Below, in pieces: positions 51,915 through 51,952 of a stretch of 64,000 nt of DNA. Made by a program: the position numbers and the translations under genes. The stretch lies in NCBI RefSeq assembly GCF_030384885.1, contig NZ_CP128613.1; one strand, 5' to 3'. Numbering within the stretch: position 1 is the stretch's first letter; each line of letters begins with the position of its first letter. The notes beneath the pieces were generated by a model. The model made no database searches and was not told the DNA's origin. It was given only the letters and a program-made list of their open reading frames with translations. Origin of the DNA: Escherichia coli. GTDB taxonomy: Bacteria > Pseudomonadota > Gammaproteobacteria > Enterobacterales > Enterobacteriaceae.

Positions 51915-51952
51915 CTAAGGTTGAAGGGGCGTTCCAGCCCCTTCAACCTTAG
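51915..51952. repeat. perfect 16-bp inverted repeat with 6-nt loop at the 3' end of the yabP-like gene
   Basis: ctaaggttgaaggggc gttcca gccccttcaaccttag; no adjacent T-run on either strand. Confidence 0.6.

Follow-up and report, generated by a model that had tools for sequence, protein, structure and literature searches.

The perfect palindrome that separates rluA from the 3′ end of the effector gene espY1 in Escherichia coli is probably a scar of DNA rearrangement at a truncated, ISEc13-like insertion sequence (IS), and not a purpose-built signal. We take it for the very junction at which the IS was truncated, because homology to the IS stops in its loop and because its right arm is an inverted copy. 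It would thus be a natural inverted duplication, produced by folding back or by a template switch, in which parent and copy can both be read and which is now established in about 38% of complete E. coli genomes. This reading accounts for a conspicuous perfect palindrome that strain K-12 carries as well. Debris of the same IS supplies working transcription signals at rluA. The practical value of the observation is small: the spacer between yabQ and rluA can be annotated better, and hairpins of this kind should not too readily be taken for regulatory elements. As a genomic scar it is ordinary, if tidy, and holds no new biology unless the stem-loop controls the expression of espY1.

The hairpin at the end of espY1

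The window, that is, the whole stretch of DNA analysed here (64 kb), has the gene order rapA-rluA-island-djlA-lptD. The features needed to follow the argument are these:

51549-52994: the island, made up of 34 nt, the IS remnant, the palindrome, espY1 and the espY1 upstream region; it fills the entire rluA-djlA intergenic space.
51583-51935, plus strand: ISEc13-like remnant of an IS4-family element with Tn5/IS50-type ends, the first 353 bp of the element (BLAST and alignment, 87.4% identity to intact ISEc13).
51583-51601, plus strand: degenerate left terminal inverted repeat CTGCCTCTTGTACATAAAT, matching the ISEc13 end CTGTCTCTTATACACAAGT at 15 of 19 positions.
51598-51627, plus strand: intrinsic terminator with a 9-bp stem and T8, inside the IS remnant, which ends the rapA-rluA transcript (terminator scan; K-12 positions 59610/59613).
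51759-51937, plus strand: pseudogene for the transposase N-terminal part (Tnp_DNA_bind), in RefSeq a 'transposase DNA-binding-containing protein', frameshifted and incomplete.
51914-51953, both strands: perfect palindrome, a hairpin with a 17-bp stem and a 6-nt loop (folding and inverted-repeat scans).
51914-51930, plus strand: left arm, contiguous with the ISEc13-like transposase coding sequence (codons ..A-K-V-E-G-A.., Tnp_DNA_bind match), 15 of its 17 positions being as in intact ISEc13.
51931-51936, plus strand: loop GTTCCA, whose ISEc13 counterpart is GTACC; IS homology ends at 51935, which places the breakpoint here.
51937-51953, plus strand: right arm, the exact reverse complement of the left arm, abutting the espY1 stop.
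51954-52700, minus strand: espY1, encoding the type III secretion effector EspY1 (248 aa), the intact form of K-12 yabP/yabQ (RefSeq annotation).

An earlier note on this DNA had singled out a perfect inverted repeat with a 16-bp stem, placed immediately after the stop of an AT-rich, yabP-like gene. The sequence CTAAGGTTGAAGGGGC-GTTCCA-GCCCCTTCAACCTTAG is indeed found at 51915-51952, exactly as given there, and one extra pair, G51914-C51953, brings the stem to 17 bp around a loop of 6 nt. On the minus strand, the TAA stop of espY1 (51956-51954) touches the stem with zero spacer. The base composition is as had been described, with a GC content of 0.38-0.45 in the island against about 0.55 in its flanks. 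RNA folding, which the same note had proposed as a check, bears out a very stable structure, at -34.5 kcal/mol for the minus strand (z = -6.8) and -35.1 kcal/mol for the plus strand (z = -7.8), with none of 200 shuffled sequences as stable; folded as DNA, the hairpin reaches -21 kcal/mol. Ten of the 17 pairs are G-C, which gives the G+C-rich stem-loop that is typical of intrinsic terminators. No perfect hairpin in the 64-kb window is longer: the runner-up has 13 bp, and in ten shuffled versions of the window none exceeded 12 bp. The hairpin occurs there as a single copy.

What follows the stem differs between the strands. On the espY1 (minus) strand the tail, CAGUAGCGUG, is devoid of a U-tract. 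On the plus strand it reads UUAUUCUGGA (UUAUUCU), with five U in eight positions, and is rated terminator-like by a lenient scan only. The claim that a T-run is missing on either strand is therefore right for the former and slightly overstated for the latter.

A truncated insertion sequence and the inverted copy at its breakpoint

To read the left side of the palindrome, the region was aligned with related copies at other E. coli loci (L002, L003, L004) and with the intact ISEc13 carried by an Escherichia fergusonii plasmid (L017). Homology starts at 51583, passes through the transposase start, takes in the whole left arm and is lost at 51935, in the loop. That BLAST homology begins exactly at 51583 is what is expected of a terminal repeat of the Tn5/IS50 type; a search for terminal repeats allowing up to three mismatches did not recover the one at 51583-51601. 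The transposase pseudogene differs from intact ISEc13 by an in-frame stop and by insertions of four and one nucleotides, and its RefSeq call ends at 51937, inside the hairpin. Once corrected for frame, its translation matches positions 8-50 of the 58 of the Pfam profile Tnp_DNA_bind (PF14706) with E = 2.6e-8, the intact copy scoring E = 1.7e-15 on the same profile. It also aligns with residues 20-65 of the Tn5 transposase, a comparison that serves as an illustration.

The element is thus a relative of ISEc13, itself of the IS4 family and akin to IS50/Tn5, with which it shares the terminal repeat, an inward terminator-like hairpin and the Tnp_DNA_bind N-terminus. Unlike ISEc13, it survives as its first quarter only, with a stop codon and frameshifts, and it is devoid of the DDE catalytic domain and of the right terminal repeat. 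No IS right end is present within the 64-kb window, including upstream of espY1, where a composite transposon would be expected to have one. Because homology stops at 51935 and the window holds no right end, this is a dead remnant and not an IS. The palindrome, for its part, is neither an end of the IS nor a component of intact ISEc13.

It is at the palindrome that the remnant and the intact element part company. In the region of the arm, the window (CTGCTAAGGTTGAAGGGGCGTTCC) can be followed against ISEc13 (CTGCTCAGGTTGAAGGTGCGTACC) as far as the loop, which is asymmetric and has the orientation of the IS. Past the loop, ISEc13 reads on CGCCTGATGCGTAACCC (CGCCTGATGCG...), while the window holds the exact complement of the left arm, unlike the IS. 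An independent homologue of the right arm was searched for and not found. We have here the hallmark of an inverted duplication, where one arm and the spacer are colinear with the parental sequence and the other arm repeats the first in exact reverse complement and has no separate homologue. Besides, the left arm departs from ISEc13 at A51917 and G51928, and the right arm mirrors both changes; the IS copy had thus already diverged when the inverted copy arose, and neither arm has undergone a substitution since.

Strain Z1323CEC0014 provides a variation on the same theme. In this strain (L016 1354-1545, equivalent to window 51759-51953) sequence of the type seen in other ISEc13 copies stands in place of the remnant, and the +4 and +1 insertions are gone. 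Judged from the sequence, gene conversion is the apparent cause. The converted stretch reaches into the left arm and stops there (it has C at 51917), leaving one mismatch in the stem, and this lends independent support to the view that the left arm is the final stretch of IS homology.

How could such an object arise? An ISEc13-like IS would once have stood next to the 3′ end of espY1, on the side of rluA, and would have lost all but its leftmost 353 bp, the cut falling within codon ~60 of the transposase gene. At the break, the last 17 nt of the retained transposase sequence (GCTAAGGTTGAAGGGGC) would have been copied as their reverse complement after a turn of 6 nt, and the inverted copy would have been joined straight to the stop codon of espY1. 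The most likely route would be snap-back (fold-back) priming or an intramolecular template switch, nucleated by a short inverted repeat, GGC...GCC, on either side of the turn. ISEc13 reads GC-GTACC-GC(C) at this place, an inverted microhomology of 2-3 bp which, as far as the sequence allows us to judge, could nucleate folding back. A parent more than 89% identical was not found among the sampled copies: the closest ones, plasmids included, are about 87-89% identical, and the best reaches 88.8% near the breakpoint. As a consequence of this distance, neither the exact breakpoint (51935 to 51939) nor the microhomology is fixed. A covalently closed hairpin end, of the kind that leaves P nucleotides, was rejected as the origin: the 6-nt spacer is not self-complementary, which argues for snap-back or template switching instead.

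Template-switch and fold-back inverted duplications, together with the correction of quasi-palindromes in E. coli, are the subject of the Ripley model and of later work by the Lovett laboratory. The present case shares with them a parental arm and its exact inverted copy, an asymmetric spacer and a perfect hairpin at the rearrangement junction, to which a putative 2-3-nt inverted microhomology (GGC/GCC) at the turn may be added. The known cases are, as a rule, mutations obtained in the laboratory, by which an imperfect palindrome already present is made perfect; here, by contrast, the inverted copy, 17 nt long, lies where a deletion or truncation took place in nature, and it has become fixed in a large part of the species. 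Of the three readings offered in the earlier note (an mRNA-stabilising stem-loop, a protein-binding palindrome, or what was left by the gene's arrival), the third comes nearest. The palindrome is a junction of truncation or rearrangement, with transposase coding sequence as its left arm; an import of espY1 by the same event goes beyond this evidence.

The state that preceded the event was looked for in several ways. An allele with espY1 beside a longer IS, or with espY1 and no palindrome, was found in none of the collections searched, which are limited, and for this reason the order of events and the mechanism are reconstructions. A scan of metagenomes for espY1 3′ ends without the palindrome after them gave no hit (it had no positive control), and a scan of genome contigs for EspY1 orthologues in other species gave a single contig, E. 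coli-like and with the same hairpin. The parental IS lineage was sought in metagenomes by means of GGTTGAAGGGGCGTNCCNNNND, a pattern that proved too short: it returned 120 chance hits, none of them homologous to the IS by BLAST.

Distribution, transcription and possible roles of the stem-loop

The presence of the hairpin was followed with a 58-mer centred on it, matched to 5426 complete E. coli genomes: 2071 of them (~38%) have it, each at a single locus, and the other 3355 do not; the 'two places' per genome in the output come from a palindrome matching both strands. This copy-number check, suggested beforehand with multicopy REP or ERIC classes in mind, came out negative for them. In 2014 of the 2071 carriers the 58-mer is 100% identical, and these include O157:H7 and K-12 (59271-59328), where the palindrome itself occupies 59280-59319, just after yabQ. 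The other 57 have variant hairpins; the two variants inspected are an extra C beside the loop in RM13516 (O145:H28) and the mismatch of Z1323CEC0014. Some seven genomes have the island and not the 58-mer. Some 3350 of the 5426 genomes have no island at all, and in these the similarity to the window stops at the stop codon of rluA. In one such strain, LF82, a 117-bp BIME with two REPs occupies the rluA-djlA gap up to the djlA stop (L005 1800-1916).

Nine main lineages were compared for variable sites. The hairpin has one in 40 positions (strain RM13516, of serotype O145:H28, has an extra C beside the loop), the 5′ part of the IS remnant 22 in about 306, its last 59 nt three, and the 3′ end of espY1 six in 37. 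Among these lineages the excess of conservation of the hairpin over its neighbourhood is not significant, and no compensatory change was found in the stem. An invariant block of 108 nt around the hairpin, seen with eight lineages, vanished when O145 was added and the sites were recounted, and special conservation was rejected on that ground. Mild selection may have acted on the hairpin, given that eight-lineage block and the identity of 2014 of the 2071 copies.

As for transcription, the rapA-rluA unit of K-12 ends at 59610, with a 3′ end at 59613 (PMC10667835 supplement). These positions fall in the T-run of the terminator at 51598-51627, about 290 nt upstream of the hairpin in the direction of rluA. 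Transcription of rluA can therefore end without the hairpin. The terminator is homologous to a hairpin located just inside the left end of intact ISEc13, in a version without the long T-run, and its place in the remnant means that, in island-bearing strains, a housekeeping operon is terminated by IS debris.

In the opposite direction, the curated Term-seq list for K-12 (PMC7815308 supplement) has no 3′ end at 59280-59325; in two published datasets together, none is listed at 59280-59325 or at 59270-59280. Because yabPQ is a barely expressed pseudogene in K-12 and the lists are thresholded or truncated, this absence is weak evidence either way. Regions of Rho-dependent termination were mapped past the hairpin on both strands, at 60116(+) and 58260(-) (PMC7815308 supplement). 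The former is antisense to rluA, and hence downstream in the direction of yabPQ. It is unlikely that the hairpin ends the transcription of espY1. There is no sign that it works as a terminator, and on the espY1 strand, to go by its sequence, a stem without a U-tract should be unable to terminate alone. Transcription of espY1 would probably read through it and be ended further on by Rho, in antisense rluA. Published work on yabP/yabQ, EspY1, ECs0061 and EHEC Term-seq was searched, and nothing about the hairpin was found in it.

Has the scar then been put to use? REP-type stem-loops stabilise the 3′ ends of mRNAs, and after read-through and Rho termination it is plausible, by analogy with them, that this one protects the espY1 messenger from 3′ exonucleases; a stem-loop of -35 kcal/mol right after the stop codon could do so incidentally. 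That it is a selected element of the espY1 3′ UTR, acting against 3′-5′ exonucleases as REPs do, perhaps first a scar and then kept for raising EspY1 expression, is a more demanding proposal, which we find unlikely while granting it some weight. The great stability of the RNA hairpin and its place directly after the stop codon speak for it, although a ribosome terminating at the abutting stop would melt the 5′ arm. Identity in 97% of the carrier genomes, and the fact that none of the nine main lineages has a stem-breaking variant (that of O145, the sole one, is an insertion next to the loop), point the same way; yet conservation does not significantly exceed that of the neighbouring non-coding sequence, there is no compensatory change with which to test the stem, and Z1323CEC0014 lives with the mismatch left by gene conversion. 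Island-free strains do hold REPs of the stabiliser type in the same intergenic region, but the listed K-12 3′ ends include none at the stem. A wider proposal has the scar of a dead transposase coding sequence co-opted as an RNA element which shields the EspY1 mRNA from 3′ decay and, together with the IS-borne terminator of rluA, insulates the convergent espY1 and rapA-rluA units. We hold it to be decidedly unlikely; if true, it would document the de novo birth of a 3′-UTR element from a template-switch event.

Other functions fare less well. A weak or bidirectional intrinsic terminator, insulating the convergent transcripts of espY1 and of rluA and the IS remnant, would suit a position between convergent genes and the terminator-like UUAUUCU of the plus strand, but it is improbable: the minus strand has no U-tract, a strong terminator already stops rapA-rluA some 290 nt before the hairpin is reached, no 3′ end is listed at the hairpin, and Rho-dependent termination lies beyond it in both directions. 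The perfect dyad symmetry, in DNA that could be extruded as a hairpin or cruciform at -21 kcal/mol, brings to mind a palindrome for protein binding or recombination (operator, recombinase site, transposase target). We hold this to be very improbable, as the sequence has no second site in window or genome, one of its arms is by accident the coding sequence of a dead transposase gene, and no regulator or recombinase gene is adjacent. Finally, membership of a dispersed palindromic repeat family (REP/BIME, ERIC/IRU or the end of a MITE) may come to mind for a palindromic extragenic sequence of E. coli, the more so as the allelic empty site holds a BIME. We give it practically no credence: each of the 2071 genomes has exactly one locus, which by itself refutes a repeat of the REP/ERIC type, the sequence does not resemble the REPs found at the empty site, and no Rfam family was matched.

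A scar of truncation thus remains our preferred reading, and it can be set beside the stem-loops that it resembles. With the REP/BIME stabilisers it shares the stability of its stem-loop, an extragenic place shortly after a coding sequence, the lack of a U-tract and the slot in which island-free strains have their BIME; it differs from them in being single-copy, unrelated in sequence and endowed with a much longer perfect stem, and its stabilising role is putative. With Rho-independent terminators it has in common a stem-loop rich in G+C where a gene ends, in contrast to which stand the missing U-tract on the espY1 strand, the broken one on the opposite strand, an unusually long stem of 17 bp and no listed K-12 end. 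In structure, then, the hairpin is like a stem-loop of the stabiliser type; by origin, it would be an inverted duplication made at the point of truncation of an IS, through folding back or a template switch.

A scan of 51400-53100 for Rfam families (E <= 10) returned sub-threshold chance matches only. One of them places mir-133 on the hairpin, at 18.7 bits against a gathering score of 55.5. Another places GcvB at 51435-51626, overlapping the 3′ end of rluA and its terminator (22.2 bits against a gathering score of 42, E = 0.028); we judged it a chance match driven by the terminator hairpin.

The espY1 gene and the edges of the island

EspY1 is a published translocated effector, SopD-like, of the pentapeptide-repeat EspY family (PMC6313403). 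The protein encoded in the window matches the Pfam family Pentapeptide. In K-12 a frameshift splits the gene into yabP and yabQ. The pentapeptide repeats are encoded by a 15-nt tandem repeat, GGTAGCACCGTCCAG (window 52082-52134, minus-strand codons), the copy number of which differs among strains (L007, L009-L013): there are three in the window and more in K-12. The most variable part of the island is the region coding for the C-terminus of EspY1. In O157:H7 (L008, L013), a 1-nt insertion (TAATTTGTTCAGC) near the 3′ end of the gene, homologous to window ~51985, alters that C-terminus and shifts the annotated stop 10 nt away from the hairpin.

The rluA-djlA spacer as a whole exists in two unrelated forms, the 1446-bp espY1 island in about 38% of complete genomes and the 117-bp BIME with two REPs. 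In strain CREC-544, which has the island-free form, an IS621 lies between rluA and djlA. At the other edge of the island, the 59 nt beside the djlA stop (window 52940-52998) contain a hairpin, GTGACCGCC-AGG-GCGGCCAC, which resembles a terminator for djlA. This segment is ~91% identical to one that lies between yjhR and an IS66-family element in E. coli genomes without the island (L018 2001-2059), and the right edge of the island may likewise be debris of a mobile element. Outside the recognised E. coli genomes, the 1.6-kb contig JAIJJM010000692.1 (L014), assigned to a Collinsella metagenome-assembled genome, encodes a 94%-identical EspY1 and has the identical hairpin; it is almost certainly a mis-binned contig of E. 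coli.
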